19,454 nucleotides of DNA. Source: an uncultured bacterium. Its GTDB lineage: Bacteria; Hydrogenedentota; Hydrogenedentia; Hydrogenedentales; JAEUWI01. Below are positions 1 through 17,576 of this stretch, one piece after another. Positions within the stretch are counted from its first letter, which is position 1; every line of letters starts with the position of its first letter. The position numbers were made by a program, and so were the translations under genes. The notes below the pieces were generated by a model. It saw only the letters and a list, made by a program, of their open reading frames with translations. It did no database searches and was not told where the DNA came from. Location of the stretch: NCBI GenBank assembly GCA_963977445.1, contig CAXBPH010000122.1, positions 1-19,454 on the forward strand, read 5' to 3'.

Positions 1-1120
1 ATTGCTTATCCATCCCCGCCTCCTTGATGAAGGCTTCCGCCATCGCCTTTCGCCGTGGATTAATCATGACCGGTATGCCAAAACACGGCTTCGAATAAAT
101 CTGCGCAGGAAGGACGGCGTCGTAGGTCATCCCGTCGCCCACAATTGCCCGTATGATCTCATCAAACCGCGTTGTAAACCAGGGTTCCGAAATAAAGTGG
201 GGCCATCCCGTGTCGGCCATACTGCAGTTTACAACCAGTAATCGCAATATGCCCTCGGTCTCGCCGCCACATTGTCGCTTGAATAGCTTGGTACGAAGCT
301 TCTTTCCCCATTCCGACCAGGCGCATTCCTCCGCGCTCCCGACTTGAAAGAACAATTGGGTATCGGTGGATTGTGTGCCCCAATGGATGGTAATTTCGCG
401 CTCGTCAGAATCCTCGTAATATTCCTCGCAAGTAACTCGAATCTCGGTTTTCCCGCCGGGGCCATCCACTACCATGTCGGACGAGGGCCGCCCCTCGGAT
501 AGCCAGGCTTTGGCTTTTGCCTGGAATTCTATTAGCCAGGCGTGGAGCTCCTTCTCGGCGCTGGGAAACGTATAGGCGTAGAACACATCATCCTGGTTCC
601 ACTCGCCGGCTATTGATTTGGGACCGGCTTCTACGCGCAGCTCAAAGCCGCAAGGCATCTCAAGGTATCGCAGTATGGCTCGAAGATACTCCTTGACCAG
701 TTGAAATCCCGCAAAGTCGGTCGGTGTATAGATCTCGACGCGAACTTCGTCTTCTGATGATTGCAAAATTAAGTCGGGGCACTTGGAGGCACCTCCCGAT
801 TCTGGTGCCACAAGTTGGCTGCCAAAGTACGAGTGCAAATGTGCAAACAAGAGCAATTCGGCGCTGCGCTGCGCTCGTTCAAACGGTTTTTTCGTTTTGA
901 GTATCGATTTACCAATGGGTCCTGAGAGAGGTAGCCATGTATTTATAAGCTCCAGGAGTTCTTTTGAGGATTCGTAATGGGTATTGTTCAATAAGCGAAC
1001 AATCTCCAGCTCCGAACGCCCGGAATCAGGAATCGAAATTGATTTCGCGATTTCCGGGTAGTCGCCAAGTACTTGGTGTACTTTCTTGGATATGGGGTAG
1101 GTGACGCAGACCGTGCTCAT
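1..1120 (-). CDS. Hypothetical protein with PD-(D/E)xK nuclease-like signature (3'-truncated at window edge, >373 aa)
   Basis: Translated by hand. ATG at 1120 is preceded by GGAGGT (1127-1132), and 373 codons are open to position 2 (MSTVCVTYPISKKVHQ...AELLLFAHL...SKCPDLILQSSEDEVRVEIYTP...KLFKRQC...LLVVN...AGMDKQ). It is missing from the ORF track, presumably because the stop lies outside the window. The nuclease fold is an inference. Confidence 0.8.
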   Translation of the reverse strand, partial: MSTVCVTYPISKKVHQVLGDYPEIAKSISIPDSGRSELEIVRLLNNTHYESSKELLELINTWLPLSGPIGKSILKTKKPFERAQRSAELLLFAHLHSYFGSQLVAPESGGASKCPDLILQSSEDEVRVEIYTPTDFAGFQLVKEYLRAILRYLEMPCGFELRVEAGPKSIAGEWNQDDVFYAYTFPSAEKELHAWLIEFQAKAKAWLSEGRPSSDMVVDGPGGKTEIRVTCEEYYEDSDEREITIHWGTQSTDTQLFFQVGSAEECAWSEWGKKLRTKLFKRQCGGETEGILRLLVVNCSMADTGWPHFISEPWFTTRFDEIIRAIVGDGMTYDAVLPAQIYSKPCFGIPVMINPRRKAMAEAFIKEAGMDKQ

Positions 1121-1175
1121 CGGTTGACCTCCTCTACCGAGCCACGCGTTCTATTTGTAGCACACAACAAACTAT

Positions 1176-1199
1176 GGACAGCCGGGACGGCTATCCTAC
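1176..1199 (-). repeat. GTAG-type REP-like palindrome
   Basis: Minus strand reads GTAGGATAGCCG-TCC-CGGCTGTCC: a GTAG foot followed by an imperfect 9-bp hairpin, in the intergenic gap after pglX. Only one copy is present in the window. Confidence 0.45.
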
Positions 1200-1223
1200 A
1201 TTCTATCTTGTTCGTCAGGTCCC

Positions 1224-3185
1224 TCATCGTGCTTTCACCTCCGCCACAACGGCGTTGACATCGTCTTCGGTGAGCTTGCGGGGGCACCAGTCTACTTTGG
1301 TTGTGGCCTTACCGCTTTTGCTGGTCTTGGTGACTTCGGCCTCTTCCCACAGGGCCGCTTCGAGGTCGTGGGCGATGGCGAGGCTGCGGTCCTGGTGGGC
1401 GGCGCGGACGACGCGGTCGGGCCAGTAGCCCATGGCCAGGTGGGCCCAGTCGTAGTCGCCTTTTTCGAGTTTGGCCCAAGTGGCCTTGAGTACCTTCTGC
1501 CAGGGCTTGTGGCGGAATAGGGGCCAGAGGGGCGCGGCGGTGATCTGGACGCCGTCGTCGTGATTCGGGTGGTAGGTCGGGGCAATCTTCAGCAGGGTGT
1601 CGCGCAGTTCGATGAGTTCGAGCTCGAAGGCCTGGAGGGACTCGAATTGCTTCTCGTCCTCCGCCGTCCGTTCCGCGCCCTTGCTGCGCAGGGCCGTCAC
1701 GTCCGCGCTCACCTGTTTGAGTTTTGGCTCCACGTAGTCGTTGATGGCCGTGTAGAGGGTCTGGCTCGTCAGGCGGGGGTAATAGACCCACAGGGTGTAG
1801 CTGCCGCTCGTCGTCGTGAGGGGCCAGTAGATGGGCGCCTTGCGGCGGCTCTTGGAATAACGCTGGAGGTGAAAGGGGAAGAAATCCCGTTGTAGCCAGC
1901 GGCGCACGTCGCCGGGCACGGGCACGTCCACACGGGCCAGCACTTCCTCCACGAGGCGCGCCAGATCGTCCGGGTGGCCGGGGTCGTCCAACAGGATGCC
2001 GCCGTGGGCATGGAAGGGCGCGTCGCCGTCGGGCAACATGCCTGGACTCTTCGCGGGCAGCGGGTCGAAAGGTTCGGGTTCGGGAGGAGCATCGCGCTCG
2101 CCCGTGGCCAGACGCCAGTCGAAGCGGCCAAAGGCCACGCCCACGGCCCAGGAGAGAAGTCCCACGGTCGCGTCCGCTTCATCGTTGGATTCTTCTTCCG
2201 AACCGGCGTCGTCGATTACATCTAGCATATCTTCGGATTCAGGTAGCGCATCTGTTCCCATAGCAGCCACCCGGTCAGATTCGCAGAACCCGTAGAGTCT
2301 AAATGCGATATCGTCTATTCGCGTTTGAAATTCTGCGAGTTCAGACTCAATCGCCTCTGGCTTGAAGTCACTCAAAAGAGATTGCAATGCGGAAGGTAAT
2401 AGGAACGCGTGAGAATTTTCGTTTGCGGTATTTAATTTTCGTTTTAATGACCACGAGCGATGGGCAAGGGTTTGCAGTACGTCAGCCTCGATTGGATCCG
2501 GCTTTGCCCATGGCATACGCTGCAAAATTCCAACAATAAATTCTGGAAATCCGAATCTACCCAGAGCAGCTTTGAACAAGTAATCAAAGGCTGCGCTATT
2601 AAATACTGCAAGCGTCAGCAATTCATCTCCGAGTGCCGGAAACGCCGAGTAGCCGCGGACCGAGAATATACAGTCTGTTGGCATGAATTGAGGGGCGAAT
2701 CGACGAGCTCTCAGCGGCCACGTAAGGCCAGGACGTCGGAAATACTTGCGTTCTGTCTCGCCTAGCATCCAAACGTTGGAGCGAATATTACCTTTCGCGT
2801 TCAAGTTGCTTTTTATCTCTAGGCCATCGCAATTCCAGTTAACTACTAGGAATATATCGGTGTAAAAGGGTGAAAAGGCACCGCCCTTTGCGAATCCCGG
2901 CCATCGCCCATTGTCTGCCGAAACTTCCCACCACGCTCGTACAAATCGGAAATCGTCTGCAGTGGCTAACCCTTGCTTAACGGTGCGGGCCTCGTTCTCA
3001 AATGCAGGAAACTCCATAAACTTGTTGCGGACAGACTCACTGACCCAATAGGCAAAGGGCGATCCTGGAATCTGTCGGAAGTTGGCGGGATCAAGTTCGA
3101 ACACGCGATTATCTCTTGTCTGGATGGCTGCTAGTAGCGAACTCTGTTTATCCTTGTCGGTCAATATTCGTAAGAACGTGGTCAT
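1224..3185 (-). CDS. pglX: BREX PglX C-terminal part (target-recognition/specificity region), encoded as a separate gene
   Basis: 653-aa ORF with PglX C-terminal motifs FRQIPGSPFAYW, KQGLATADDFRFVRAWWEV, FAKGG, YSKSRRKAPIYW, HDDGVQITAAPLWPL and YDWAHLAM. Its ATG overlaps the upstream stop as ATGA (3182-3185). Confidence 0.85.
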   Translation of the reverse strand: MTTFLRILTDKDKQSSLLAAIQTRDNRVFELDPANFRQIPGSPFAYWVSESVRNKFMEFPAFENEARTVKQGLATADDFRFVRAWWEVSADNGRWPGFAKGGAFSPFYTDIFLVVNWNCDGLEIKSNLNAKGNIRSNVWMLGETERKYFRRPGLTWPLRARRFAPQFMPTDCIFSVRGYSAFPALGDELLTLAVFNSAAFDYLFKAALGRFGFPEFIVGILQRMPWAKPDPIEADVLQTLAHRSWSLKRKLNTANENSHAFLLPSALQSLLSDFKPEAIESELAEFQTRIDDIAFRLYGFCESDRVAAMGTDALPESEDMLDVIDDAGSEEESNDEADATVGLLSWAVGVAFGRFDWRLATGERDAPPEPEPFDPLPAKSPGMLPDGDAPFHAHGGILLDDPGHPDDLARLVEEVLARVDVPVPGDVRRWLQRDFFPFHLQRYSKSRRKAPIYWPLTTTSGSYTLWVYYPRLTSQTLYTAINDYVEPKLKQVSADVTALRSKGAERTAEDEKQFESLQAFELELIELRDTLLKIAPTYHPNHDDGVQITAAPLWPLFRHKPWQKVLKATWAKLEKGDYDWAHLAMGYWPDRVVRAAHQDRSLAIAHDLEAALWEEAEVTKTSKSGKATTKVDWCPRKLTEDDVNAVVAEVKAR

Positions 3186-5738
3186 GCTTGTTTCTCCAGT
3201 ACATAGGCGGCGGCTTCCACCATGGCGTCATCCATCACACCATGCCCCAGGTCGGCCATGACCTCCGGCGTCCCAATACCTAGAACGACCTCCTCGCGCC
3301 ATTTTTTGTAGCTAGAGAGAAAGAAACAGGTGCGCGAGGTGATTGCGCCAATACGCCCGCCCGTTCGCAAGAGCTCCATTCCCCGCTCGACAAAGATGGC
3401 CAGTAGGTCGTTCTTGCTGCGGGGATAAGCCTTCCCGAGTTGGGCTTTCGTGTTGCTGGCCAGGGCGCCGAAGGGGGGATTCATCACCACTACATCGAAG
3501 ACTTCGCGGCAGAGGTCAATAAGCCGCAGTCCCTGGAGGGCATCCTGGGCGAAGAGTCGTCCCTGATACGTAGACTGGGCGGCGTGGGCGAAGTCGGTGA
3601 GGGCGCCGCGGAGTCGATCTTCCGCCTTTTCCCATTGGGCCATGTCTTCCGCTTCGAAGAGATCGCCATGTTCCCCGAAGACCTGGCGAATGAGCCGGGG
3701 GAGTTCCCGCTCCACCTGGAGGAGGACGCCCAGCTCGGGCAGGCCCTTGAGGAGGGTGAGGGTTTTCTCGAAGAGTTCGGCATCGAGGAAGTCCAGTTGT
3801 TCGCTGAATTGTGCCCGCAATTCCGGCTCGGCGGGGGGGGGCCACGGCGGCCACCACATGGCCCTGGCCGATGCGGGGCCGGTCCTTCGCCGCCGTGCCC
3901 CCTTCGTGCCAGGCGCGCTGGGCGCGGAGCCAGAGGGCGAGGGAGGCGATCTGAGCGGCACGGGCATCGATATCGACGCCGTAAAGGTTGTGCTCGATGA
4001 TGAGGCGTGGGATGAGTCTGCGGAAGTTCGCCAGGGCTTCTTCTTCGGTGTATTCTTCACAGGTGATGTAGTCCGGCTTATTGCCACGAAAGGCATAGGC
4101 GGTCACCAGGCCCTCGTTGAGGAAGGCGTTCCAATCCGTCCCGGCCAACCGCCGGACGAAGGTGATGCCCGACCAAGCTTCGACTTTTTCAGGGCAGTAA
4201 AGGTGAAATCGACCAGGTGGGTGGAGCGGCCCGGGAGACTGTACGACCAGCATGGCCGTCTCGCGGGTGAGTGGCTGCCCCATGGCATCACAGGTCAGCC
4301 TGTCCCAGTTTCGAACCGAGACGCTGTCGGCCTTGATCCAACATGCGGGAAACTGGTCCCGGAATGATTCGTCGGCCTTCCAGGCTTCCTCGTAAATGGT
4401 CTGCATGAGATCAAAGGCGTAGAGGAGGAAGTGCCCACTGCCGCAAGCCGGGTCGAGGATCTTCAGTTCGCGGGGATCCTTCCGGGGCCGGTACGGCACC
4501 AGCACCGGCGCCCGGAGCAATGCTTCCTGGGAGCGATCCGCTCCTTCGCCCGCGCGCAGCCGGTCCAGAATTTCCTGCCCGGCCCGCATAGCGAGGCTGC
4601 CGCTTCGGAAAATCGTGCCACACCCACTTTGGCGATCCGCGCGCGCACACAAAAATAGAAAGTCCCACAATTCTTGCAAGGGCACCGCCTTCAAATCGTC
4701 CCGTGCCCGGTACTGCTCCTCTAGATGGTAAAGCTTCGCCGGACTGCCTTCCCGCGCGTATCCATCGACACAGTATCCAAGCTGAACAACGAGGTCGACT
4801 TGCTTTTTCTCCTCCTCCGGCCAGTCGGGGATCCTCCCCTGGCGCAACGCATCGGCCAGGGGTTTCACCCCGCCGCCGTATTCATCGTCCGCCGTCGACT
4901 TTGCGAGGAAAACGTCATTCGGCCGCCGGAGGAGGTACTGGCAGGTGTCTTTCAGGGCGGTCTGGCCCTGGCACATCTCATACCACGTACGCCCGAGGGT
5001 GTTGTCCACGAGGAACTCCACCACATAGCGCGGGGTGAAGAACTGGTTGCGGACGGCGAGCTCCCGGCTGTTGCGCGGGGCCTGGGAGGCATCGCGCATG
5101 GCCTTGCGCTCTTCCTTGGAATTGAAATATTGGTAGATCCAGCCGATGGCCTCGTCTTCCGCCCAGAGCATTGCCAGGTCGCCATGGTTGATCTCGGCCA
5201 GGAGCTCCAGGAGGGCGGTCTCCCGGGGGAAGAGTCGGCCCATGGGGGAATAGCGGTCGAAGAGGACGGGGAGATCGAGGGCGAACTCGTCGAAGACACT
5301 GAGGAGATAGCAACGGTAGGCGTCGCCCGTTTCCCCGAGGGCGGGCCCGGCAAGGCGCTTGTAAAGCTGGAAGCCCTTGGACTCATAGCCCTGGGCGACG
5401 GATTCGAGGAGGAGTCCCCGGGCCTCGGCCATGCGGAGGGCGCAGAGGCGGTTGAGAACGGTGAAGGCCTGCTCGCGGACGAGACGGTCGAGGGCGGCCT
5501 GGGTGTCGCGCTTGGGCATGTTGGCCAGCATGTGCTCCAGGATTTCCCGGAGGAGGCTGGCGGTCTCCCGGCCCCGGGCGTCCAGGGCGGTGAGCTGGTC
5601 GAGATCGGTGATGGTGCCCGACTTGGGGTCCAGGCCGTATTCATGCTGGAGTTGGCGCGTGAAATCGGTGCCCAGGAGGTCCCGGGCGGTGTTGACAAAC
5701 TTCTGGAGGCGGTTGCGTGTGGCGTTATCGAAGGCCAT
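3182..5738 (-). CDS. pglX: BREX adenine DNA methyltransferase PglX, N-terminal/catalytic part, frameshifted (+1) at a C9 tract (851 aa if C8)
   Basis: Frame 1 has MAFDNATRNRLQKFV, AFTVLNRLCALRMAEAR, IGWIYQYF, NQFFTPRYVVEFLVDNTLG, motif I ILDPACGSGHF and HNLYGVDID. After 3833-3841 the protein continues in another frame (PPAEPELR...FDVVVMNPPFG...DLGHGVMDDAMVEAAAY), which holds catalytic motif IV NPPF. Confidence 0.88.
3833..3841 (-). repeat. C9 homopolymer (G9 on + strand) at the pglX frameshift site
   Basis: + strand gcGGGGGGGGGcc. Minus strand GTG GCC CCC CCC CGC; deleting one C gives GCC CCC CCC GCC GAG CCG (A-P-P-A-E-P) and joins the two ORFs. Confidence 0.85.
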
Positions 5739-5744
5739 GGGGTA

Positions 5745-8700
5745 TTACTCCTCGAACCTAAAGGTGACTTCGATATCGCTGGTGATAGTGAGCTCGTTTT
5801 GCAGGATCTGGAGCTCCTGGATGAGGGCCTGGAGGCGCTGGGCGTCGTTTAGCGCCTTGGGAATGCGCACCTCGCGCCGGAGGGTTGTTTTGCCCTTCTT
5901 TTTCGCTTCCTCTTCCTCATCGAGGAGTCGCTTTCGCCGACGCTCCTCGCCCGTGCGGTGAATGCCCGCTTTTTGCGCACTGACCTGGTTCGCCAGCTCA
6001 ATTTCGTTGCACAAAAGGGACTGAATCCCTTGGATATCGTCGCTGGCCGCGATAATGTAGCCATCGAGCTTGCCGAGTTCCTGGGATTGCTCTTCCTGGG
6101 TCAATTCGAGCCACTCGGGAAGGTGCTGGAGGTCTTTTTGGGCTTCCTTGACCGCGGCCTGCTGGGTGTCGGCCATTTTCTGGGCCGTGTCGCGAATGGC
6201 GGCCTGGAAGTTGGACCGGGTGGTGTTCAGGTCGGCCTGGTGCTCGTGAAAATTCTTCTTCTCGAGCCGATCCTGGAGGTGGGCAATGTCTTCGGCGAGT
6301 TCGGTCTTGAGATTGCCGGAGCGGCCCGAGTTGGGGAAGCCCTTGATGGCGCTGTCCATCTCGCGGAGTTGTCGGATGGTTTTCTCCAGGCCGTCGCCGA
6401 GGGCCTTCACCACAGCCATGGCCCACTTGATGCCGTCGTAGAGGGGGGCATCTTCCCCGCCCAGGCGCTGGGGGGCGTCGGATGCGTCGGTGGAGAGAAT
6501 AGTGCCAATTTCCTCGTGGATGGCTTGAACGTCGTGGCAGCCGGGGAGGCCGAGGTTTTCCAGCTTGCCTGCAAGGGGTCCGCACCATTGCTGACACTTG
6601 GTGAGGGTCTTCATGGCGGCCTTGCTGATGTCTTCCTCCAGGGGCACGACGCCTTCGCCAGAGAGATCGGTGAGCCGTTCCGCCGCCCGGGCCAGGAGCT
6701 CGTTGGAGGGTTTGTCTTCCCGCAGGGCGACCCCGACCTTCTTGAAGGCGTTGTTGGTGCGGAGGGCTTCGATGGCTTGCTGGCCGTTCACGGTGACCTC
6801 GTGCCCGCCGATCTTGAGCTTGATCTCGCCGCTGACGAGGAGGGCAGCCACGAGATAGCGGAGGGTATCCTGGGACCAACCGAAGGGGGCGGCGGTAAAG
6901 TGATCCATGAGGCGCTTGCCCTCGGTATTGCCGTTGCGATCGAGGTAATCCTTGATGCTGACGAGTGCCTTCTGGTCGCTGCGGATCCGGGGGCTTCCAC
7001 CGGTCACCTCGACCAGACCGAGGGGGTCGGTCTTCACATTAGCGGCCTTTAGATTGCCCAGACGGAGGAAATCTTCGGCGAGGGACGTATCCAGGCGCAG
7101 GGGCGCTTCGTGGAAGCGGTCGAAGACCTGTTCTGCTACGCCCGACAGGTATTTCTTGCCTGCTTCGAGGACATCCTGGTGGAGGCTGTCTACTGCGGTA
7201 ATATCACCCTTGAAGACGAAGGACCCCTGGGCCAGGTGCTTCTTCAGCACCCGCTGTAGCTCGGCGGAGAGCCGTTCCGCCCGGTCCAATTGACCGGCAC
7301 AATATTCCTTGATCTCCTGATCGGGGTCGTTCTTGTGGCGCCGGGCAATTTCCTGGCACCGGAAAATCTCTCCGAGCGCACCGTCGGTCTGGGCATCGCT
7401 TCGGGCGACGAGGAAGATGGTAAAGCGTTCGCCCTGCTGCCGGGAGTCACCCACACGATCGGCACGGGCATGCTCGTATTCATCGGGGCTCACAAACTGG
7501 ATAACCGTCTGGATGGGGTTGCGGTCCCCTTCGAGGCTGCTGGCCATGGCGCCCGTTGTGGCCGACTTGATACCCGAGGTAATGGTCAAGGCATTGTGCA
7601 GCCGCGTGGCGGGGAGGGGTGAAAAGATTGCGCGCAGGGCATCGTTGAAAATGCGTCGCGTTTCCACGGCGCGCAGGGGCAACTGGGCCCGCTCCTGGTC
7701 GATGTCGTTGAGGCGCTCACTGAAGAAGCAAAGGCTGCCGTCCTTCTCGCCGAAAGGGACAAAGCCGTTGTTGATGAGTTCGGCGATGGCCGATTCCACG
7801 GCGTCGCGCTGGGATGGCGCGGCGATGCCCGGGTGCATGAGAGACGCGACGTTGTGCCGGTTGACGGGCATATTGCTGAGGATCTGCAAGATGGCCACGG
7901 TCTTGGCGATGTCCTGATGGAGGGCCGAATCGGGAAACTGCTGCCGGGCTTTCTCCACGGCACTGTGGGTCGTGGAAAAGGCGCGCCGGATATCCTTCTC
8001 CAGGCAGTCATAGAGCGTGACGGTGGTGGCGAGCCAGCCAAGTTCTTGATCGGCAACGGGTTTCTGGCCGGGTACACCTTCCACCAGCACGTCCTGGATG
8101 ACCTTGATAGCCGAGCGAAGGCCGATGCCACCGGTGGTCTTCGCCAATTGGCCGAGGAGATGCAGGAGGATTTCGAAGTGGGCCGGCAAAAATGGGTACA
8201 GATCGATGAAGGTCTTCTCGTCGAAGTCGGCGTCGTAGAACTTCGCGTCCTGGAGCTTGGTATTGTGGCGGAGCGCCTGCCCGTGCTGGGCGAAAAGGGC
8301 CTTGAGCTCCTTGTCGCCCGCCGGTGCCTTGCCCAACAGGCGCTTGGTGCAGATTTCCTTGATGTCCCGCGATTCCAGGTCCACCTGGATGGGGAAACGA
8401 TCTTTCAGCTTGAAGAGTTCGGGCGAATTGATGGCGGTGCGCGGGTCGTCCTCGGTGAGGGTTTGCTGGGCGGTACCGATAAACCAGACCTTGCCATCGC
8501 CGATTTTCTTGAGGTTTTCGGCGAGACCCTGGAGGTTCAGAATGAGGTTCTGTCGGGAACCCACATATTGGCCCACCTCGTCCACCACAAAGAGGATGTA
8601 TTCTTTCCCCGACGCTTCACGGACGATGTTGATCATTTCTTCCACCCGCTCGGTTTCGAAGCGAATATGCTCTCCGGCCTCTGTGTTGAATGAGGCGGGT

Positions 8701-9368
8701 GTCTTGAAAAGCTGCGGATACATGGCGTGCGCGACATCGGGAATGACGCTGTCGACGACGAGGGGATCGTCTTGAATATGCTTCCAGGGGACGCCCACCT
8801 GCTCATCGATACGCTGCTGAAATTCTTCGGTCCGTTCGTCCTGACGCACCTTTCGCTCGAAGGCAGCAACCTTCAGGTTTCGGGAGTAACCGGAGGCCTG
8901 AAGGACTTTGTAGTAGAGGACGGTGGAGATTTCTTCTTGCGTGGCACCGGCTACCATATCGCTGGCGAGATCGAGAAGAATAACTTTGGCCGGAAATTTC
9001 TTCGCCAGCGAGGTGAGCAGGGCCTTGGTCTGGGGACGCTCGAAGCGATTCTGAAAATGTTTGAGGAAAGGGTCGCCATCGACTGTCACGCTGTCGTCTA
9101 AGGCGAGACCGAGGTATTTTGTAAAGGAACTTTTACCCGACCCGTAGAAGCCAGACACCCACACGCCAACCTCGTTCTGGCCGCCGACTTCCATGGCAGT
9201 TTGCATCTTCTCGAGCAGTTTCTCACACTGTTCTTCGATACTTTCTGTGACGATGTATTCGCCGATTTCATTCTTGAGTCGTGTTTCCTCGTTGACTTTG
9301 TAGGTGATTACCTTTTCGATGGTGCGATGAATGTCTTTCGCCAGATCGAAGAGTTCCCTAATCTGCAT
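5745..9368 (-). CDS. brxC: BREX P-loop ATPase BrxC (1207 aa)
   Basis: Walker A VWVSGFYGSGKSSF, Walker B LFVVDEVGQY, TAQQ, KLKDRF, YPFLP and APFGWSQDTLR motifs. Start placed at ATG 9368 (MQIRELFD) because GGAGG precedes it and brxB ends at 9379. Confidence 0.92.
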   Translation of the reverse strand: MQIRELFDLAKDIHRTIEKVITYKVNEETRLKNEIGEYIVTESIEEQCEKLLEKMQTAMEVGGQNEVGVWVSGFYGSGKSSFTKYLGLALDDSVTVDGDPFLKHFQNRFERPQTKALLTSLAKKFPAKVILLDLASDMVAGATQEEISTVLYYKVLQASGYSRNLKVAAFERKVRQDERTEEFQQRIDEQVGVPWKHIQDDPLVVDSVIPDVAHAMYPQLFKTPASFNTEAGEHIRFETERVEEMINIVREASGKEYILFVVDEVGQYVGSRQNLILNLQGLAENLKKIGDGKVWFIGTAQQTLTEDDPRTAINSPELFKLKDRFPIQVDLESRDIKEICTKRLLGKAPAGDKELKALFAQHGQALRHNTKLQDAKFYDADFDEKTFIDLYPFLPAHFEILLHLLGQLAKTTGGIGLRSAIKVIQDVLVEGVPGQKPVADQELGWLATTVTLYDCLEKDIRRAFSTTHSAVEKARQQFPDSALHQDIAKTVAILQILSNMPVNRHNVASLMHPGIAAPSQRDAVESAIAELINNGFVPFGEKDGSLCFFSERLNDIDQERAQLPLRAVETRRIFNDALRAIFSPLPATRLHNALTITSGIKSATTGAMASSLEGDRNPIQTVIQFVSPDEYEHARADRVGDSRQQGERFTIFLVARSDAQTDGALGEIFRCQEIARRHKNDPDQEIKEYCAGQLDRAERLSAELQRVLKKHLAQGSFVFKGDITAVDSLHQDVLEAGKKYLSGVAEQVFDRFHEAPLRLDTSLAEDFLRLGNLKAANVKTDPLGLVEVTGGSPRIRSDQKALVSIKDYLDRNGNTEGKRLMDHFTAAPFGWSQDTLRYLVAALLVSGEIKLKIGGHEVTVNGQQAIEALRTNNAFKKVGVALREDKPSNELLARAAERLTDLSGEGVVPLEEDISKAAMKTLTKCQQWCGPLAGKLENLGLPGCHDVQAIHEEIGTILSTDASDAPQRLGGEDAPLYDGIKWAMAVVKALGDGLEKTIRQLREMDSAIKGFPNSGRSGNLKTELAEDIAHLQDRLEKKNFHEHQADLNTTRSNFQAAIRDTAQKMADTQQAAVKEAQKDLQHLPEWLELTQEEQSQELGKLDGYIIAASDDIQGIQSLLCNEIELANQVSAQKAGIHRTGEERRRKRLLDEEEEAKKKGKTTLRREVRIPKALNDAQRLQALIQELQILQNELTITSDIEVTFRFEE

Positions 9369-9378
9369 GCTGCCTCCC

Positions 9379-9954
9379 TTATCCGCCGACGTGGCAGGAA
9401 CGGTAATTGCCATCGTCGGGGTAAAAACCCAGAAAACTCAGTGTGCTCTTGCCCGCGCGCTTGCCAGGATAGAAAAACACCGTAGGTACATAAAACTTCT
9501 CAGACAAGGCACCCTCGATCGCACCGATGCGCATGTAGGGATGAAGCGCTTCCAGATCGGTCACGAGCAGGATGCCATTGTTAGCGTCTTTGAGTTCTTC
9601 CAGTTTGGCCGCCAGCCGCCTCTCGATGTCCTTCTCCTGCTCCAGCCGGTTGGCAATGGATGCATTCGCCTTTTCCCACGCCAGGGGTTGCCTGGAATCC
9701 GCGCGAAGCCAGAGTTTGCGCAGGGGCGCACTACGGACGATATCGAGCACGGCTTCCGCGATGGAGAAGGTATGCACCTCCCAACCCTCGTTTCTCAGTC
9801 GGGCTTCCCAAGCTGGCAACTGGCGCTTCACATCGAGAATGAGTTTCGGAGCAAACACGAGATAGTACACGGGCTCAAAGCTTGCGTGCGAAAGCTCCCG
9901 TCCGCGCCGAACGCGTTCGAGAAGTTCGTTGAAGTCATCCTTCATTGAGGGCAT
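9379..9954 (-). CDS. brxB: BREX BrxB (DUF1788-like)
   Basis: 191 aa with LLVTDLEALHPYMRIGAIE, VPTVFFYPG and LSFLGFYPDDGNYRS. It lies between brxA and brxC, with a GGAGG RBS before ATG 9954. Confidence 0.88.
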   Translation of the reverse strand: MPSMKDDFNELLERVRRGRELSHASFEPVYYLVFAPKLILDVKRQLPAWEARLRNEGWEVHTFSIAEAVLDIVRSAPLRKLWLRADSRQPLAWEKANASIANRLEQEKDIERRLAAKLEELKDANNGILLVTDLEALHPYMRIGAIEGALSEKFYVPTVFFYPGKRAGKSTLSFLGFYPDDGNYRSCHVGG

Positions 9955-10723
9955 ACCGCAATTCCTCCATGTTCTGACAGTTCCAACTTATCCGAACAAC
10001 ATTGCTGGCGGCCTGTAGAATCAGCAATCCGCGAAGTGCGAGGCGCTTCAGGAGATCCAATACCTCGTGACGCTCCAAGGCGAAGAGTTCCCAGTCGGGA
10101 TGGGCCATGATGCCGTTGTCGCCCACGCCCGCAAAATGAAGGTCATAGGCGATAACACAGGCGACCGTGGGACGGCAATGGTAGGGCACCATCTTTCGCA
10201 AATTTCCACGGCCCTTTTCCAGGAGTCCAAAGTCCGTACAACACCCCAGGAGATAGCTGGAGACCCGTTTGACTGTCGATTCGGACCAAAGACGGGTAGT
10301 TTTTCCACTTTGGTTGGCGCGAATCACAAATTCACGGGCTTGGTCGAGGTGGAGAGTGTCGTGCCCCGTGGCGTAGTGTGGCCAGTAAACTTGGGTAACA
10401 AAGTCGCGGAGTATTGCGTTTGCCCGACAGGTATAACGAAATAAGAGCTGTTGGATGTCGGCCGGTGAAAGCACGTTGCCCAGTTCTTTCAGGAGGGACG
10501 CTGGCTGTGCATTCTCACACAGATAGCGGGGCGCAAAGCATTCCATGACGACATTTCGAAGCCGTCGAGCAGAGACATTTGGAAACTGGCCTGATTCAAG
10601 TACCATGCGGCTGAGCGTGGTTGTATCCACACCTGGCTCCCATAAATTGAGCAATGTCTGTGTCTCTTGAATGAGTCCCAGACCGGCCTGGAGCTGCGTC
10701 GTATAAAGTCGGTTCTGGATCAT
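9935..10723 (-). CDS. brxA: BREX BrxA (DUF1819-like)
   Basis: 262 aa with YTTQLQAGLGLIQET, SARRLRNVVMECFAPRY, ILRDFV and WSESTVKRVSSYLLGCCTDFGLL. It overlaps brxE (ATGA) and brxB. Confidence 0.88.
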   Translation of the reverse strand: MIQNRLYTTQLQAGLGLIQETQTLLNLWEPGVDTTTLSRMVLESGQFPNVSARRLRNVVMECFAPRYLCENAQPASLLKELGNVLSPADIQQLLFRYTCRANAILRDFVTQVYWPHYATGHDTLHLDQAREFVIRANQSGKTTRLWSESTVKRVSSYLLGCCTDFGLLEKGRGNLRKMVPYHCRPTVACVIAYDLHFAGVGDNGIMAHPDWELFALERHEVLDLLKRLALRGLLILQAASNVVRISWNCQNMEELRYALNEG

Positions 10724-11226
10724 GGGTCTTCTTTAAAATAGGGAAAAGTCTTGATGCCAGCCGAAAAGGCAGCCAGATATAGCCCCCCCACATGCCGCCA
10801 GATATCTGGCTTAAACAGGTCTGTATGAGTTCCCACACATGTGGGTCCCTCGGCATTTTTGGGAGGGCGCTCGGTCAAGGATTCCAGCACGGTCTCCAGC
10901 GCCCCGTTGTCCCCCAGATCCAGCTCCCCCGGTTGCCCCAGCTGATGGATCAGCGTCTCGTGAAGTCCCTGCTCCAGTTCTTCAGGGAGCCTGAACAGGT
11001 GGTACGTCTTACCGACGCCAATAAAATGGTCGTGTGGGATAATGGCCGCTGCACACAAGGCATGGTACTGTGCCAGGCGGGTCGAGCGGGGAAACACTGG
11101 CGTCAGAAACGGCTCGCTCGTCTTACTGCTGAAGTTGGATTCCCACCACTTCGGCGTCTTTCGTTCACCGAGACCTCCGACTATGAGCCGTAAGAGGATC
11201 AGGTTCTTTTGCAGGGAATCGGGCAA
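10720..11226 (-). CDS. brxE: BrxE family protein
   Basis: Motifs LRLIVGGLGE, WWESNF, VFPRS, HDHFIGVGKTYHLFRLPEELEQ and FPYF. It is the first gene of the operon. The probable start is TTG at 11226, preceded by AGGAG (168 aa); the ORF track start at 11247 lacks an RBS. Confidence 0.82.
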   Translation of the reverse strand: MPDSLQKNLILLRLIVGGLGERKTPKWWESNFSSKTSEPFLTPVFPRSTRLAQYHALCAAAIIPHDHFIGVGKTYHLFRLPEELEQGLHETLIHQLGQPGELDLGDNGALETVLESLTERPPKNAEGPTCVGTHTDLFKPDIWRHVGGLYLAAFSAGIKTFPYFKEDP

Positions 11227-11328
11227 GTCTATCTCCTGAAAATACAAAAAACTCTAATTCTGTGGAGAGCGAGAGCCCCTTTCTGTGAAATGAGTCCCAT
11301 TGAATGAATCCAATAATCGCCCAATTAT

Positions 11329-11344
11329 TCCACTTCGAAGTGGA
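11329..11344. promoter_or_regulatory. Perfect 16-bp palindrome upstream of the BREX operon (candidate operator)
   Basis: TCCACTTCGAAGTGGA is its own reverse complement and lies about 100 bp upstream of the brxE start. The function is inferred. Confidence 0.35.
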
Positions 11345-11880
11345 GCCCTTCCACCACACGCAGGCTATATGAATAGCATAATAAGCACTTGAAATCAAAA
11401 GAATTAGGTTGCCTGATAGGTCCGGTGTGCATGGTGAGGTATCACTGGACGTGAAAAATCAATCTAGAGCGGTTTTCTGCTATTTCACTTTCGGTACCTG
11501 ACTATGGATCGTGGTCATATTTCGCAATGGCAGAGAAACGCGTGGGGAATCGCTTGACTGGAATGAGTACTGGGGACACAACTATATACCAACAAGAAAA
11601 GTCGTACATGCACTTTATTGTGCTCTCATACCCATTGGAGGGGCGGTGTCCCTTTCCCGCCGGAGCCGCCCGTCGATACGGTGAACCAGCACGAGCCCGT
11701 GCCCTGGGTCAAGGTGGAACCTCCGGGGGATTATGGGGACCTTGACGCAGGGGGCGGGTCCGTGCCATTTCTCGAAGGCAACGGCAGACATGGCGGACGC
11801 CACGGGGTAATTCAGACGCGACGGGCGGGTCTGGTGGGAAAGGCCCCCTTTCCTGCTGGTGAGCCCAGAGAGGGAGTGGT

Positions 11881-12783
11881 ATGAGTGAAATCGAGGAATG
11901 GTCAAAGCGACACGGCGATTCCCTACTTCTCGGTCTACCGATTCAAATGGCAAAGGCAAGTGAAGCTGTGTACGCCCTGTGCATGTTGGCGTCACAGGAT
12001 AAGCTCCTTGCAGAGGAAAGCAATAGACCATCGCACGAAACTTGGATTTGTTTTTATCGAAATCACAGGCGAGTCAGGACGGTCTTCTTTGACAGTTTCT
12101 TTCCAGCCTTGACAGCCCGAGAAGAACAGGTGGATGTCAGGGACGCTCTCAAGGAGAGAGTGTTTCAACGTCTTGAGAGAAAGGAAGCTACGTCGATCGC
12201 CGATTTGGAGTCATTGCTTGATTCGGAGTTTTCAAAGTGTGTCGAGTCGGAGAGAGGCCTTAGTGAAATCTTGGCTATACCGGAGGTTCTATTTTTCTTT
12301 CGTATTGCATTGCCTTGCTGGTATCAGTATGGACGAACACCTGGACAACTGTTTCGTAATTCACTCCGAGGATGCAAGGAGTCTATTTTGAAGCTTCTCA
12401 ATCTGGACCCCCGGATTCAAGAAGAACCCAAAATTCGTCATACGCTATTCGAAATGCAACGTAGTGAAACCTACAAGAAGAAGGTTTCAAGAGCCGTGAC
12501 AGGCTCTCTATATAGGCCTCCCTCGGAGGCTCAAGTCAAAATACTCTTGGCCGGACTAATAGATCGTTATCAACAGATATTGACTCGTACGATGCCGAAA
12601 TCCGGGCTGCCAATAGACGTTCCGAAATTGGGCGAGCAGAGCCTTCGCGACCTGTTTGATGCGGTTGCACAGGATAAGGGCTTGGAAATGGAGGAAGACA
12701 TTCCCGACAGTCCAGAGGCTTTTTACAAGGCAATTTATCGGAATCGTAAGACGTGGCCTAGTAGTCTGAATGATTTGATGTAA
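11881..12783 (+). CDS. Hypothetical protein (300 aa), helical, possibly DNA-binding at the C-terminus
   Basis: Long ORF with a GGGAG RBS before ATG 11881, co-oriented upstream of rep/xis. No family recognised. Confidence 0.75.
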   Translation: MSEIEEWSKRHGDSLLLGLPIQMAKASEAVYALCMLASQDKLLAEESNRPSHETWICFYRNHRRVRTVFFDSFFPALTAREEQVDVRDALKERVFQRLERKEATSIADLESLLDSEFSKCVESERGLSEILAIPEVLFFFRIALPCWYQYGRTPGQLFRNSLRGCKESILKLLNLDPRIQEEPKIRHTLFEMQRSETYKKKVSRAVTGSLYRPPSEAQVKILLAGLIDRYQQILTRTMPKSGLPIDVPKLGEQSLRDLFDAVAQDKGLEMEEDIPDSPEAFYKAIYRNRKTWPSSLNDLM

Positions 12784-12813: not shown

Positions 12814-12888
12814 GGTGAAAGCGGGCAATTCCTCGTAGGCTGTGTTCATGTTTACCATGTATCACAGTAACAAGATGTCAACAGCAAA

Positions 12889-12942
12889 CGCCCGGCGTAA
12901 CGGGTTTCCGTGCGGCAGCACGGAAACCCCGTACGCTGGGCG
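12889..12942. other. Long GC-rich stem-loop upstream of rep (candidate origin or regulatory structure)
   Basis: Perfect GGGTTTCCGTGC-GGCA-GCACGGAAACCC (12902-12929), extended by CGCCCGGCGTA/TACGCTGGGCG. Confidence 0.5.
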
Positions 12943-12973
12943 CTTTGTCTTTGGCGAACGAGGAGAATGGCGT

Positions 12974-14206
12974 ATGTCTGAGAAAGTGCCCGAGCATGGT
13001 GGTGAGTTGAGTATCACCCACCATGCAAATCGTCAAGAACCAACAAAAGAGAAAGAAATACAGGATTCGGAAACGGGAGGTGAAGACACGGTCCATCTGG
13101 CCTTGGGTGTTCACTGGGAGAATTTTGAAGAGTTTTTCGGCTGTCTGGCTGTCGCCAAGGAGCAGGCCATCGAAAACCACGGCGCGTTGCGGCTGACCAT
13201 CCGGGGACGTCTGGTTGCGATAAAGCCTAAGGGAAAGAAAAGCGGGGGTGGCCGCGGCATGTACTATCCGATTTGCCTGAACACCCAGGGTTTCACGATA
13301 TGGCTGTCCGAGCATGCAAGCCCTATCGAGCAGACTCCCAACGTCTTGGTCGAAATGGGATCCGCTCTGCTCATGTCTACGCGCGGGCTCATGTCTGCCT
13401 TGGAAGAGCTCGTCATTCTGCTCGGTGAATTCGGCGGACAGGTCTTGTGGGACAAGATTTCACGGATAGACCTGTGCGCGGACCTCCCGAATGTCGACCC
13501 CCACGATCTAATTGACCTGGTTTATTTGGAGCAGACGGTATGCCGGGCGCGCATCGAACAGTTTTTCCGGGAAAGCGGGCGATGGCGCGGTATCCAGGTG
13601 GGACGCGGTGAATTGTTGGTTCGTATTTACGACAAATTCCACGAGGTTACACGCGCGAAGCCGGACCCGATAAAGCTGATTCTGCTTGAACGGTATCGGT
13701 GGGGCGGACCACAAGAAACGGCTTCTCGGGTAGAGTTCCAACTTCGTCGTGAGGCGGTGAAAAGTCTGGGTGTCGATACAGCTTCCGATTATCTCGCCCA
13801 ACGTGACAAGTTGGTGGCGTACCTGTGCGAGTCCTGGTTTCGTCTCGTCGATTCCGTGCCTGACCGGGAAAACAACAATACCCAACGAGCAGCCACACAC
13901 CCGCTTTGGTTGAATGTGACTGAGGCTTTCCGGGATTGGGCGGGCCATGGCGAAGCTATGGAACGGCAAACGCGGCGACCTTTCACTCGCGACCCTATTC
14001 GGTTGGTCAAGCAAGGTTTCGGATGCCTTCTGGCAGCAGTCTCTGACCTTCGCGATGGTGAGGAGGTTCGCCCAGATGAATTCGCGGCACTTGTAAAAGA
14101 GTGTATCGAATGGAACCTCGCCAAGATGAGCGAAATCGAGTTCTACCGGCGCTACCACGCCAAAGCCCTGCCCAAACTTGTGGAGCGTCCGCACGATGAG
14201 AAGTAA
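12974..14206 (+). CDS. Rep_trans-family replication initiator / MOBT-like relaxase (410 aa)
   Basis: Motifs DTVHL, NVLVEMGS, KISRIDLCAD, IQVGRGELLVRIYDK and SRVEFQLRRE match the SR(I/L)D...RIYDK...R.E pattern of Rep_trans proteins. Start set at ATG 12974 after AGGAGA (12961-12966). Confidence 0.82.
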   Translation: MSEKVPEHGGELSITHHANRQEPTKEKEIQDSETGGEDTVHLALGVHWENFEEFFGCLAVAKEQAIENHGALRLTIRGRLVAIKPKGKKSGGGRGMYYPICLNTQGFTIWLSEHASPIEQTPNVLVEMGSALLMSTRGLMSALEELVILLGEFGGQVLWDKISRIDLCADLPNVDPHDLIDLVYLEQTVCRARIEQFFRESGRWRGIQVGRGELLVRIYDKFHEVTRAKPDPIKLILLERYRWGGPQETASRVEFQLRREAVKSLGVDTASDYLAQRDKLVAYLCESWFRLVDSVPDRENNNTQRAATHPLWLNVTEAFRDWAGHGEAMERQTRRPFTRDPIRLVKQGFGCLLAAVSDLRDGEEVRPDEFAALVKECIEWNLAKMSEIEFYRRYHAKALPKLVERPHDEK

Positions 14207-14523: not shown

Positions 14524-15678
14524 TTACTGGATACCACTCTGAATTTTCTCTCCGCTCTTCGAGACGTTCTGGTCGGTGCCGAATTCGACCGTTTCGCAGG
14601 TGCTTTCCGGGGTGATGCACGCATAGTGTCGTCGGCATATCTCGGGAGAATTACCCATCAACGTCGATATCTTATACAGGCTTTCACCCTTCATGGCGAG
14701 TTGGGACCCAAAGGTATGTCGATAGTCCAGGCAGGTGAACCTGATATGCTTTTTCTGGTTTGTGTTCCGTAGGTCACGGCTGAAATTGTCACAATCCCAT
14801 CGCTTTCCTTCCGGGCTCGGAAAGAACCAGTGGCCGGGCACAATCCGGGGCTGGTACGAGTCGAGATAGCCGCGCAGGGTACTGCTGATGGGTACCACCC
14901 GGTTGACCTTGGTCTTGGGTTCCCAGGATTCCCCATTCACCGTCTTGGCACGGACGCGAATCATGCCATGAGGGCCACTCTTGAAGTCCATATCTGTATG
15001 GGTGATCCAGAGAGCTTCTTCGCGCCGGAGCCCCGCATAGATGTAGACCGCCACCAACGTCTGAATTAGGGGGGTATCTTCGAGGGCCTGGAGCTGGGAG
15101 TCGATTTGTTCCAGTGTCAGGAAATTGATTCGGGGTGCTCTCTCCCGGTACCGCTTTACCCTGGTGACCGGGTTTCGGTCGCCGGGCATCTTGATACCCC
15201 GCTGGTCAATCGCCCAGGCAAAGAGCGTATGGAGTACCTCGCGGTAGCGGTTGGCGCTCTTGGGGCCCAGGCCACGGGTCTGAACCATGGTGCTAATGAA
15301 TTGGCTTACGTGGGCCGTGGTCACATCTTCCAGTCGGGCTGTCTCGATTCGGTGCTTCCCGGAGTCTTGTTGGGCTCGGGAAGCCTTGAGGGCGATGCAT
15401 ACAGGACCAAATGCCTCTCGAAGGTAGTGGAAGTCCGACTTCAGGCTGTTGCGGGTCTTATGCTGTCGCATGTACTCGACGTACTCTTCGAGAATTTCTG
15501 GAATTCGGGTCCGGGTGGGAACTGGGCTGTCGTCCTGGCGGAGAAGGGACGACTCAATTTGCCGGACCTTTTCCCTGGCGAGTTGCAGGGAGGTAGTTCC
15601 GAGGCCGACTCGTTTGGCTTTGCCGCCCACACAATACTGGGCGTAATAGGTTTTTCCGCGTTTGAGAAGACTTGCCAT
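14524..15678 (-). CDS. Tyrosine recombinase / phage integrase (384 aa)
   Basis: N-terminal arm-binding-like MASLLKRGKTYYAQYCVGGK; catalytic region IYAGLRREEAL, PKTK, DYRHTFGSQL, LMGNSPEICRRHY. GGAG RBS before ATG 15678; adjacent to a tRNA. Confidence 0.93.
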   Translation of the reverse strand: MASLLKRGKTYYAQYCVGGKAKRVGLGTTSLQLAREKVRQIESSLLRQDDSPVPTRTRIPEILEEYVEYMRQHKTRNSLKSDFHYLREAFGPVCIALKASRAQQDSGKHRIETARLEDVTTAHVSQFISTMVQTRGLGPKSANRYREVLHTLFAWAIDQRGIKMPGDRNPVTRVKRYRERAPRINFLTLEQIDSQLQALEDTPLIQTLVAVYIYAGLRREEALWITHTDMDFKSGPHGMIRVRAKTVNGESWEPKTKVNRVVPISSTLRGYLDSYQPRIVPGHWFFPSPEGKRWDCDNFSRDLRNTNQKKHIRFTCLDYRHTFGSQLAMKGESLYKISTLMGNSPEICRRHYACITPESTCETVEFGTDQNVSKSGEKIQSGIQ

Positions 15679-15737
15679 GGGTAGTATCTCCAGTGACCCC
15701 AAAGGTCACGTTGGCAAGCCCCATGTTTTCTACCCGA

Positions 15738-15758
15738 TTGTGTACAGTTTTGTGTACA
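15738..15758. repeat. Tandem TTGTGTACA direct repeats (candidate integrase arm-type sites)
   Basis: TTGTGTACA at 15738-15746 and 15750-15758, between the tRNA 3' end and the int start. Confidence 0.55.
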
Positions 15759-15774
15759 AAAGCCACATTTGGGC

Positions 15775-15811
15775 AAAGAAAAAGGGACCTGCGTATCTAC
15801 GCAAGTCCCTT
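15775..15811 (-). terminator. Terminator-like hairpin just 3' of the tRNA
   Basis: + strand AAGGGACCTGCGTA-TC-TACGCAAGTCCCTT (one mismatch), followed on the minus strand by a T-rich tract. Confidence 0.65.
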
Positions 15812-15821
15812 ATATCATTAA

Positions 15822-15898
<77 letters not shown>

Positions 15899-15917
15899 TC
15901 AGTTGTTGACAAGGAGT

Positions 15918-15947
15918 AGTGTACCAAATGAAACCTTAGCGATGCAA
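15918..15947 (-). promoter_or_regulatory. Putative sigma70 promoter of the tRNA
   Basis: Minus strand TTGCAT-N18-TACACT with an extended -10 TG, about 20 nt upstream of the tRNA. Confidence 0.4.
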
Positions 15948-15974
15948 CTTATAACTGGTGAAATAATCGTTTAC

Positions 15975-16442
15975 TTAAGATTCGTCGAAAATCGCTTTGA
16001 AATATTCCGGGTTATCCAGCAAGCGCAAGTCCACGTTCTTGAAGGACTCCACCTCTTCCCGCGATATGGGCGCATCGTGATCGTTGCCATAAGGGTCGAT
16101 CTTTCCGAGGGGCGTGTTGCCCAGGGGGGCCGCTCCCTTGGTGCCCGCGTCGATCTCTTCGTAGGTCACGTTGTCTTCCAGATCGTCTTCGTCATAAAGG
16201 CGATCAATCCGATCATGGAGGAAGTTTCCGAGCACTTCGTTGAGGTGGGCTCGCTTCACATCGGTGTCTTCCGATGACATAATTTCTTTGTCAAGCGCCA
16301 GAACGCGGCCGCAGAATACAGCGACCATGCCGTGGCACTCGGGGCAGGGCCCCACGATGATTGACCCCAATGGCGGGAGCATAATTTGCCCCTGGGCAGA
16401 GCAATGGGGGCACGTGACCTCGATAAGGGACAGCATAATCAT
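15975..16442 (-). CDS. Hypothetical protein with N-terminal zinc-ribbon (CPHC...CPEC) and acidic C-terminus
   Basis: 155-aa ORF with a GGAG RBS and two CxxC motifs 22 residues apart. No family recognised. Confidence 0.75.
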   Translation of the reverse strand: MIMLSLIEVTCPHCSAQGQIMLPPLGSIIVGPCPECHGMVAVFCGRVLALDKEIMSSEDTDVKRAHLNEVLGNFLHDRIDRLYDEDDLEDNVTYEEIDAGTKGAAPLGNTPLGKIDPYGNDHDAPISREEVESFKNVDLRLLDNPEYFKAIFDES

Positions 16443-16600
16443 ATATCTCCAAAGGCTTCACACAACGTAAGTGTATCATATCCCTGAGAAAAACAGGATA
16501 AAAATAGCTAAAATCGAATTAATCGATTTTATCAACACGTTGTCTCATTTCGAGACTGACTTGGTGGCACAGCACCAACTAGGCAACCGGGCAAGGCCGA

Positions 16601-17053
16601 TTACTGGGACGGAGAGGTGTCCAACTTGGCCTGGATAGCGTCCAGAAGGGCCTGCGACTCAGGCGTATCGGACGTTTTGCGATCATGCCAACCGGGGTAG
16701 GTCAGCAAGGTCACGCCGTAAGACTGCTTACGGGTGTCCAACGCAATATGGGTCTCGTTTTCTGAGACCGCTTCGATATCAAAGGTGTATTGATAGCGAT
16801 TGGGCTGGAGGTATCGGCGTTTCATGGGCGTGTAGGCCACAAAGGCCCCACGCTTGTCTCGCGTATAGATATCAAGCTCTTTTTCGCGAAGAATGTCTTT
16901 GACAGCTTGCCACGTGTCCTCAAAGGACGCATCCACCGAGATGTCATGGTTCTGGGCGAAGCCCGTCGTGTCGCTGGGCGCATGCACACAACCCTGAATC
17001 GCAACACTGGACATGGCCAGCATCGCCCCGGCGATTAGCATTCGTAGCTTCAT
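16601..17053 (-). CDS. Putative lipoprotein (150 aa)
   Basis: Signal peptide and lipobox-like MKLRMLIAGAMLAMSSVAIQG-C. Start at ATG 17053 after GGGAG. Confidence 0.75.
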   Translation of the reverse strand: MKLRMLIAGAMLAMSSVAIQGCVHAPSDTTGFAQNHDISVDASFEDTWQAVKDILREKELDIYTRDKRGAFVAYTPMKRRYLQPNRYQYTFDIEAVSENETHIALDTRKQSYGVTLLTYPGWHDRKTSDTPESQALLDAIQAKLDTSPSQ

Positions 17054-17133
17054 GAATATCTCCCGCATCGTAACGGTTCGTCATAGGGATTCGCGTCAAA
17101 CTATACCCCCTCGGGGGAACCCTGTGGAAGGCT

Positions 17134-17168
17134 AATCCCGCCGACCTGAATAATCAGCCGGCGGGATT
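17134..17168 (-). terminator. Hairpin downstream of tatA (putative terminator)
   Basis: AATCCCGCCG (17134-17143) / CGGCGGGATT (17159-17168) with an inner CTGA/TCAG stem; no clear U tract. Confidence 0.45.
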
Positions 17169-17188
17169 GATGCCAAAAACAATAGGGT

Positions 17189-17389: not shown

Positions 17390-17576
17390 GGCTTACTCCT
17401 TTTGAACTCACGGTCCTACAATCCATTACTGGATTGGCAGTTTACGCGGTGGCCCCCTTCGCCTGATGCGCACATGCCTATGCAGACCAGCGGACGCCGA
17501 TGGTCCGACAGGCACCAACAGGGCACCCGGGAGGTGATAGCTGGGGGTGCTTCACCAACGCTTCTTGATCCCCTCT

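Follow-up and report, generated by a model that had tools for sequence, protein, structure and literature searches.

The stretch of DNA considered here, called the window throughout, comprises 19,454 nucleotides (nt) of contig C122 in the genome assembly of an uncultured bacterium of the Hydrogenedentota. At its very beginning lies a gene of an unnamed family (2..1120, minus strand), placed directly behind pglX in a locus of the bacteriophage exclusion (BREX) type. Here, I propose with moderate confidence that this gene, hereafter the target, encodes a nuclease of the PD-(D/E)xK fold which serves as an auxiliary effector inside BREX; I infer its activity, the role of the lysine K278 and its function in defence from the evidence laid out below.

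A conserved gene with a predicted nuclease core

The target is a real and conserved gene, beyond a chance open reading frame (ORF). Its 373 codons are free of stops and the frame is open past the window edge; window position 1 is base 1 of contig C122, so the truncation is due to the assembly and not to a stop codon. An identical protein in the protein database (P0002) and a paralogue (P0003) both have 393 amino acids (aa), hence the window copy holds 373 of 393 codons and lacks about 20 C-terminal residues. The assembly, a binned genome of 464 contigs with a completeness of 94% and a contamination of 0.67%, includes two further contigs of relevance, C41 and C84, the latter carrying the paralogue. 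The two copies are identical at 81% of amino acids and 83% of nucleotides, and the ratio of non-synonymous to synonymous divergence (dN/dS) is 0.22 over 373 codons. A ribosome-binding site, GAGGAGG (1128..1134, minus strand), stands 7 nt upstream of the ATG at 1120, and the spacer separating the target from the end of the C-terminal pglX gene at 1224 measures 103 nt. An earlier reading of the letters alone, the sequence-only reading in what follows, had described a stop-free minus-strand frame of at least 373 codons, a strong ribosome-binding site and a co-orientation about 100 bp behind pglX, and these descriptions hold. Between the pglX stop and the target start there is also a terminator-like hairpin (1176..1196, minus strand) with a 9-bp stem including 6 G-C pairs, which is a consensus match only.

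A word-indexed search returned 56 homologues of similar length, all of them unnamed or "hypothetical" and none with Pfam domains. An exhaustive HMMER search of 1.84 billion proteins, with a profile built from 44 sequences, returned 224 cluster representatives at E<=1e-3 and 104 at E<=1e-30. Full-length members have about 350-460 aa, and the best 150 rows, spanning 68-457 aa, contain no long fused forms. The family is rare and compact.

The AlphaFold2 model obtained with the 44-row alignment is confident (predicted local distance difference test, pLDDT, 88.9; predicted template modelling score, pTM, 0.88), and its core, arranged as alpha-beta-beta-beta-alpha-beta, looks like a restriction-endonuclease-like (PD-(D/E)xK) fold. 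At least 14 of the first 25 fold-match rows are PD-(D/E)xK-type nucleases by title. Among the lower rows are CdiA-CT 4g6u (listed value 6.8), BsmI (6.6), NucC (6.0), Cdn1, Can2, Bse634I, McrC and BsaWI, followed by Bax1, BspD6I, PaqCI, PfoI, Cfr10I, Vsr and Hjc. Likewise, the top 993 chains in Foldseek comprise BsmI (6.7), Hjc (96-101 of 114-125 residues aligned) and VRR-NUC (87 of 92), along with FokI, EcoRV, HindIII, AvaII and arenavirus cap-snatching endonucleases. A two-copy homodimer prediction with the alignment scored 0.00, which counts neither for nor against a dimer.

In the classical PD-(D/E)xK layout, as described in PMC3424549, a Glu sits on the first helix, an Asp starts one strand of a hairpin, and the (D/E)xK motif lies in the next. 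The three acidic residues of the target occupy the corresponding places: E88 of the AELLL motif (codon 857..859) on the predicted helix 79-102, D116 of the PD motif (773..775) directly before strand 117-120, and E129, the first residue of E129-I130-Y131 (728..736), in strand 125-131, all encoded on the minus strand. Conservation was assessed in 44 close relatives (the 44-row alignment) and in 43 diverse members down to 15-20% identity. E88 is invariant in the former and at least 90% conserved in the latter, as are L44, P133 and R241 among the diverse members; D116 is invariant in the 44-row alignment and always D or E in remote members. E129 is invariant family-wide, together with K278 and Q283 of the KLFKRQ motif (codons 272..289, minus strand), located at the end of helix 270-281. 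At position 131, where the canonical motif has its lysine two residues past the second acidic one, the family has Y, F or T.

The motifs listed in the sequence-only reading are all present, namely AELLL (E88), KCPDLIL (D116), RVEIYTP (E129, Y131), KLFKRQ (K278-Q283) and LLVVN (294-298), and the PD-(D/E)xK core proposed from them agrees with the predicted model, where E88, D116 and E129 fall on the expected helix and beta-hairpin. The same reading had remarked on a tyrosine where lysine is expected. Tyr131 does occupy that site, yet the catalytic role thereby implied falls, since the position varies among Y, F and T. The PD-(D/E)xK superfamily tolerates a relocated lysine (PMC3424549), and K278 is a candidate relocated catalytic lysine, as predicted from conservation; on the same grounds K278 and Q283 are better candidates for the lysine role than Tyr131.

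Nuclease fold matches align about 130 residues spread over residues 65-353 of the model, so that some 100 residues, 168-269, remain uncovered (314..619, minus strand). They lie between the core strands 158-167 and 291-298 and include the conserved W195, W206 and R241 and an STDT motif. Folded alone with a 26-row alignment, this stretch reached a pLDDT of 67.3 and lost its strands, being unfit for a fold search; it is probably integrated with the core and not an autonomous domain. The inserted sensor domain once suggested for this gene is accordingly not upheld, for it comes down to these uncovered residues and their poor isolated model. No SRA, YTH or similar modified-base-reading domain was found by Pfam in the target.

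Two BREX loci in one assembly

Contig C84 bears a second, complete locus, with the order brxE-like, brxA, brxB, brxC, a UvrD-like helicase gene, a fused pglX, the target paralogue, a GmrSD-like gene (551 aa, Pfam GmrSD_N), pglZ and brxL, flanked by an ArdC-like gene at one end and an integrase gene at the other. In the window, the minus strand reads BrxE-family gene, brxA, brxB, brxC, pglX and target, up to the contig end. On contig C41, a GmrSD-like gene (552 aa) begins 55 nt after the contig start, and a CoiA-nuclease-like gene (372 aa), pglZ and brxL come next. These initial 55 nt are homologous to the spacer that separates the target paralogue from the GmrSD-like gene on C84. It is therefore very probable that C41 continues C122 (read on its reverse strand) across a gap of about 100 nt, and that the two are one locus. 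The sequence-only reading had placed the target in the pglX-pglZ interval and would have been contradicted by the lack of a pglZ further downstream; both the slot and the downstream pglZ are seen directly on C84 and, by way of C41, are probable in the window locus.

The best-conserved gene across the window and C84 loci is the target itself, at 81% identity, ahead of the N-terminal 458 aa of PglX (74%), BrxL (72%), the GmrSD-like protein (67%), BrxB (57%), BrxC (55%), PglZ (55%), BrxA (52%), the C-terminal part of PglX (38%) and BrxE (36%). A megablast block at about 83% identity extends over window 1-1553 and takes in the target, the spacer and about 330 nt of the pglX 3' end. Being shared by two divergent BREX loci above the identity of any core gene, the target may serve as a marker for the exchange of accessory cassettes between defence loci.

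Divergence between the two copies is uneven. Synonymous divergence (dS) amounts to 0.42 over residues 1-90 and 0.22 over residues 181-373, and the intervening residues 91-180 (581..850, minus strand) are strongly diverged, the proportion of differing synonymous sites (pS) being 0.83 (saturated) and that of non-synonymous sites (pN) 0.28. This segment contains the predicted catalytic hairpin, followed by a helix, a strand and a loop; judging from its substitutions, it is much older than the rest or derives from another allele. The mosaic divergence therefore indicates recombination between the two loci, and suggests that residues 91-180 were swapped by it. Since the assembly is a binned genome, the two loci might also come from two closely related strains.

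A bolder scenario, which I regard as decidedly unlikely, would have the target and the GmrSD-like gene form a mobile two-gene restriction cassette, moving between BREX loci by recombination at the pglX 3' end. Residues 91-180 would then be an exchangeable specificity module, and the two copies would cut different substrates, such as differently modified phage DNA, and would protect the cell whenever the C9 tract puts a phase-variable pglX in the off state.

As to the remaining genes of the window locus, all on the minus strand, the BrxE-family gene (10720..11247) is the first and is followed by brxA (9935..10723), brxB (9379..9954) and brxC (5745..9413). Here pglX is split into an N-terminal, methyltransferase gene (3182..5738) and a C-terminal gene (1224..3185; PADLOC PDLC02532, E 6.7e-276), the halves overlapping by ATGA (3182-3185) and matching separate PADLOC models, PDLC02526 and PDLC02532; the C84 pglX is fused and encodes 1471 aa. 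The N-terminal gene occupies two frames, with a switch exactly at a 9-base homopolymer (3833-3841; G9 on the plus strand, C9 in the gene). The match to the C84 PglX runs in frame A before the homopolymer and in frame B after it, one base fewer or two more would restore the frame, and the C84 pglX has no homopolymer tract at the matching site. The tract marks either a phase-variable gene in its off state or a homopolymer assembly error. The notion of a backup for times when BREX is off or inhibited, raised in the sequence-only reading, is speculative, although pglX is indeed out of frame in the window.

The UvrD-like helicase gene of C84 (901 aa; 15063-17768, minus strand), located between brxC and pglX, is without counterpart in the window locus. 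Conversely, the 372-aa gene of C41 (1758-2876, plus strand), a second accessory gene of this slot, which follows the GmrSD-like gene and precedes pglZ, has no counterpart in the C84 locus; its protein matches a CoiA nuclease domain weakly (Pfam E 9.1e-06). The BrxL of C41 (5421-7490, plus strand) has a C-terminal MIT_C / phospholipase-D-like domain (Pfam E 9.7e-50), in agreement with PMC12839542, where an HKD nuclease domain is reported for the C-terminal end of BrxL.

Genes for tyrosine recombinases of the phage integrase family flank both loci (window 14524-15702, minus strand; C84 23762-24736 and 1890-2750, both minus strand), and both loci probably reside on integrative mobile elements. 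Between BREX and the integrase gene, the window contains ORFs of 300 aa (11881-12783, plus strand), 454 aa (12842-14206, plus strand) and 138 aa (11615-12031, minus strand), for which Pfam, NCBIfam and PADLOC gave no match. A further ORF of 554 aa (17725-19389, minus strand), with an N-terminal EF-hand motif and a weak TrAA12-like match, is apparently unrelated to BREX.

Homologues and their surroundings

Scanning one genome per species gave 18 homologue loci, 17 of which had flanks; four ORFs on each side were inspected, 120 in all. Domains of restriction, toxin or abortive-infection type lie within four ORFs of the homologue at nine of the 17 loci, a count made without background control. 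These are GmrSD_N with HNH (L007), PIN (L008, L011, L023), Fic with Gp49 or DUF6088 (L009, L015), RES/Xre and GmrSD (L013), and Fic again (L019, L020), with AbiJ in L019. Four further loci (L012, L014, L017, L022) have transposases close to the homologue.

Metagenomes yielded another 31 loci. ORFs were called in 21 of them, and 82 ORFs from 18 loci were passed through Pfam after duplicate arrangements had been dropped (L027, L033, L035 and some ORFs of L028, L036 and L037). The neighbours include PIN, DUF4041+T5orf172, SNase and WD40 (L026), a C5-methylase with HNH_2 and BrnT (L029), NYN (L030), type I HsdM/HsdS/RhuM (L038), MazF (L040), and Mrr_cat with an IrrE-like peptidase (L045); several loci have plain housekeeping surroundings (L043, L048). 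No neighbour is common to different lineages, and sharing is confined to close ones. Altogether the family gives the impression of a gene that stands alone in variable islands rich in defence genes, with the proviso that the defence-gene counts are uncontrolled for background. The sequence-only reading had proposed the neighbourhoods of homologues as a check; the vicinity of restriction, toxin or abortive-infection type domains stands in this uncontrolled form, and a link to BREX does not, as discussed below.

The target gene is absent from all 14 other genomes of the same taxonomic family and was found in two of 135 genomes of the phylum, the second with a fragment only. Searches by tblastn against plasmid and phage collections and a scan of viral contigs gave no match.

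Lineage-bound arrangements do occur. In five Rhodothermales loci (L009, L012, L014, L015, L021; about 9290-9997) a Gp49-like toxin gene and an antitoxin-like gene stand directly upstream of the homologue, and the trio recurs despite differing wider flanks. The small ORF upstream in these loci was considered as a universal partner and rejected: neighbours are lineage-bound, and the ORF resembles the antitoxin of a Gp49-like toxin, presumably of the HI1420 type. In two Latescibacterota loci a ResIII helicase gene lies downstream, with a PIN gene beyond it (Pfam). Partial copies of the homologue only are found in L017, L018, L023 and L024. In L022 (10001-12207) the homologue is matched at residues 4-142 only and is followed by a Mutator-family transposase gene (10969-12207), having probably been interrupted by an insertion sequence.

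Proposed role, alternatives and known systems

In the reading favoured here, E88 on the first core helix, D116 at the start of a hairpin strand and E129 in the next strand would bind a divalent metal, and K278, with Q283, would take the role of the missing lysine from a helix that returns to the core after residues 168-269, making the protein a Mg2+/Mn2+-dependent nuclease. It would probably act alone, since a constant partner gene is absent, and would serve as an auxiliary effector; in this type 1-like BREX locus it shares the pglX-pglZ slot with a GmrSD/BrxU-like type IV enzyme. Some restraint would have to exist, because a constitutive non-specific nuclease would be toxic; the enzyme might depend on modified substrates, be specific for a sequence or structure, or become active only upon infection.

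Several results weigh against this reading. The canonical lysine is absent from the target. Foldseek searches of PDB and BFVD returned nothing at E<=0.001. A sequence-level link to any nuclease family is likewise absent: Pfam, PADLOC and NCBIfam assign the window protein to no family, the sole NCBIfam row of the paralogue (E 0.083) scores 12 bits against a cut-off of 230 bits, and the only row of a PDB sequence-profile search with the 44-row alignment, at E 1.5, is not meaningful. Along the same line, Pfam found no family in 24 remote relatives and, at E<=5 on the 43 diverse members, chance matches only (the top family in 2/43; VRR_NUC once, at E 0.11), and the closest clusters in the ESM Atlas are all "hypothetical protein" with no Pfam family in common. 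Finally, BREX genes are found neither among the 120 flanking ORFs of the 17 genome loci nor among the 82 ORFs of the 18 metagenome loci.

The missing lysine, with Y, F or T in its place, could also mean that the protein is a catalytically inactive member of the restriction-endonuclease fold, acting as a DNA- or nucleotide-binding sensor or regulator of BREX or of the neighbouring GmrSD-like enzyme. Sensor roles have been proposed for inactive domains of this kind in BREX-related helicases (PMC12839542), and both copies of the target stand directly upstream of a GmrSD-like gene in this genome. I nonetheless consider such a role unlikely: inactive domains usually lose their acidic residues, and here E129 is invariant, E88 kept in at least 90% and D116 always D or E, even at 15-20% identity, with the K278/Q283 pair invariant as well. 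Moreover, 15 of the 17 genome loci have no GmrSD within four ORFs and none has a BREX gene nearby, which makes a dedicated partner unlikely. Another possibility, of similarly low probability, is an abortive-infection RNase or tRNase toxin with the PD-(D/E)xK fold, like CdiA-CT, which would be inactive until infection and would then cleave tRNA or other RNA so as to halt growth. With respect to the CdiA-CT toxin domains themselves (PDB 4g6v, 4g6u, 5j4a, 4zqu), the target has 10-15% identity, is three times larger, with an extra N-terminal helical region and an internal stretch, and has neither a CdiA delivery region nor a CdiI-like immunity gene; the best 150 family rows contain no long fusions, and no small neighbour is conserved across lineages.

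The target might, lastly, be a passenger without a role in defence, such as a nuclease of recombination or repair or some function belonging to the integrative element, which recombination would have copied from one BREX locus to the other. Both loci are flanked by integrase genes, transposases adjoin homologues at the four loci mentioned above, the block of about 83% identity spans the pglX 3' end and the whole target, pointing to recombination, and Hjc-type resolvases are among the fold matches. Archaeal Hjc (PDB 1gef, 2wcw), however, has the canonical lysine and no long internal stretch, and the context of the target is one of defence and mobile elements, not of replication or repair. The target is also co-oriented and tightly packed in the BREX operon of two otherwise divergent loci; its patchy occurrence, in none of the 14 other genomes of its taxonomic family and in only two of 135 of the phylum, speaks for an accessory defence gene more than for a housekeeping one, and plasmid, phage and viral collections gave no match. 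A mere passenger is for these reasons very improbable, and the reading as an auxiliary nuclease is retained.

Among known enzymes, the PD-(D/E)xK variant PA4535 (PDB 1y0k), which has a relocated lysine and the motif PD-EXX-K (PMC3424549), is a precedent for the proposed active site; no sequence similarity to it is detectable, and the candidate K278 lies about 150 residues downstream, past a long stretch uncovered by fold matches. With Shedu (SduA, DUF4263), a single-gene nuclease defence linked to BREX in PMC12839542, the target has in common that it is a single-gene candidate effector of the restriction-endonuclease fold in defence islands; it has no PADLOC or Pfam match to Shedu at E<=0.01, and a Shedu structure is not among the listed fold matches. 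With no PADLOC or Pfam family of its own and no BREX domains in the 120 + 82 neighbour ORFs of homologues, the target does not belong to the core components of BREX either.

BrxU and BREX give complementary protection (PMC8565348), and the extra layer of restriction thereby carried with BREX is what is proposed for the target too. Unlike GmrSD/BrxU, the target has no DUF262 (ParB-like NTPase) or DUF1524 (HNH-like) domain by Pfam; its immediate downstream neighbour, in both copies a GmrSD-like gene, carries GmrSD_N. That the pglX-pglZ interval holds extra genes, as the sequence-only reading stated, is in print: Salmonella LT2 has a two-gene insertion there (PMC9009780). According to PMC12839542, thousands of taxa have BREX loci in which auxiliary or "backup" nucleases are embedded, PD-(D/E)XK being the most prevalent and GmrSD/HNH the second.

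To sum up, extra nucleases in BREX loci are a kind of system already known, and the target resembles those of PMC12839542 in being a stand-alone gene of the restriction-endonuclease fold in a BREX operon, beside a GmrSD-type enzyme and upstream of pglZ; it differs from them in matching no Pfam, NCBIfam or PADLOC model and in having no BREX linkage outside this genome. What is new is a family without a model in these databases, which may already be contained in Supplementary Data S4 of that paper, as well as the variant layout of the active site and the occurrence of two copies, each with its own BREX locus, in a single assembly. Extra BREX nucleases are mostly recognised through existing models; this one matches none, so annotation and defence-finding pipelines would call it "hypothetical". 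At about 390 aa, the target offers a compact test case for a PD-(D/E)xK variant whose lysine has apparently moved to a distant helix, and adds one candidate single-gene effector beside BREX and GmrSD.
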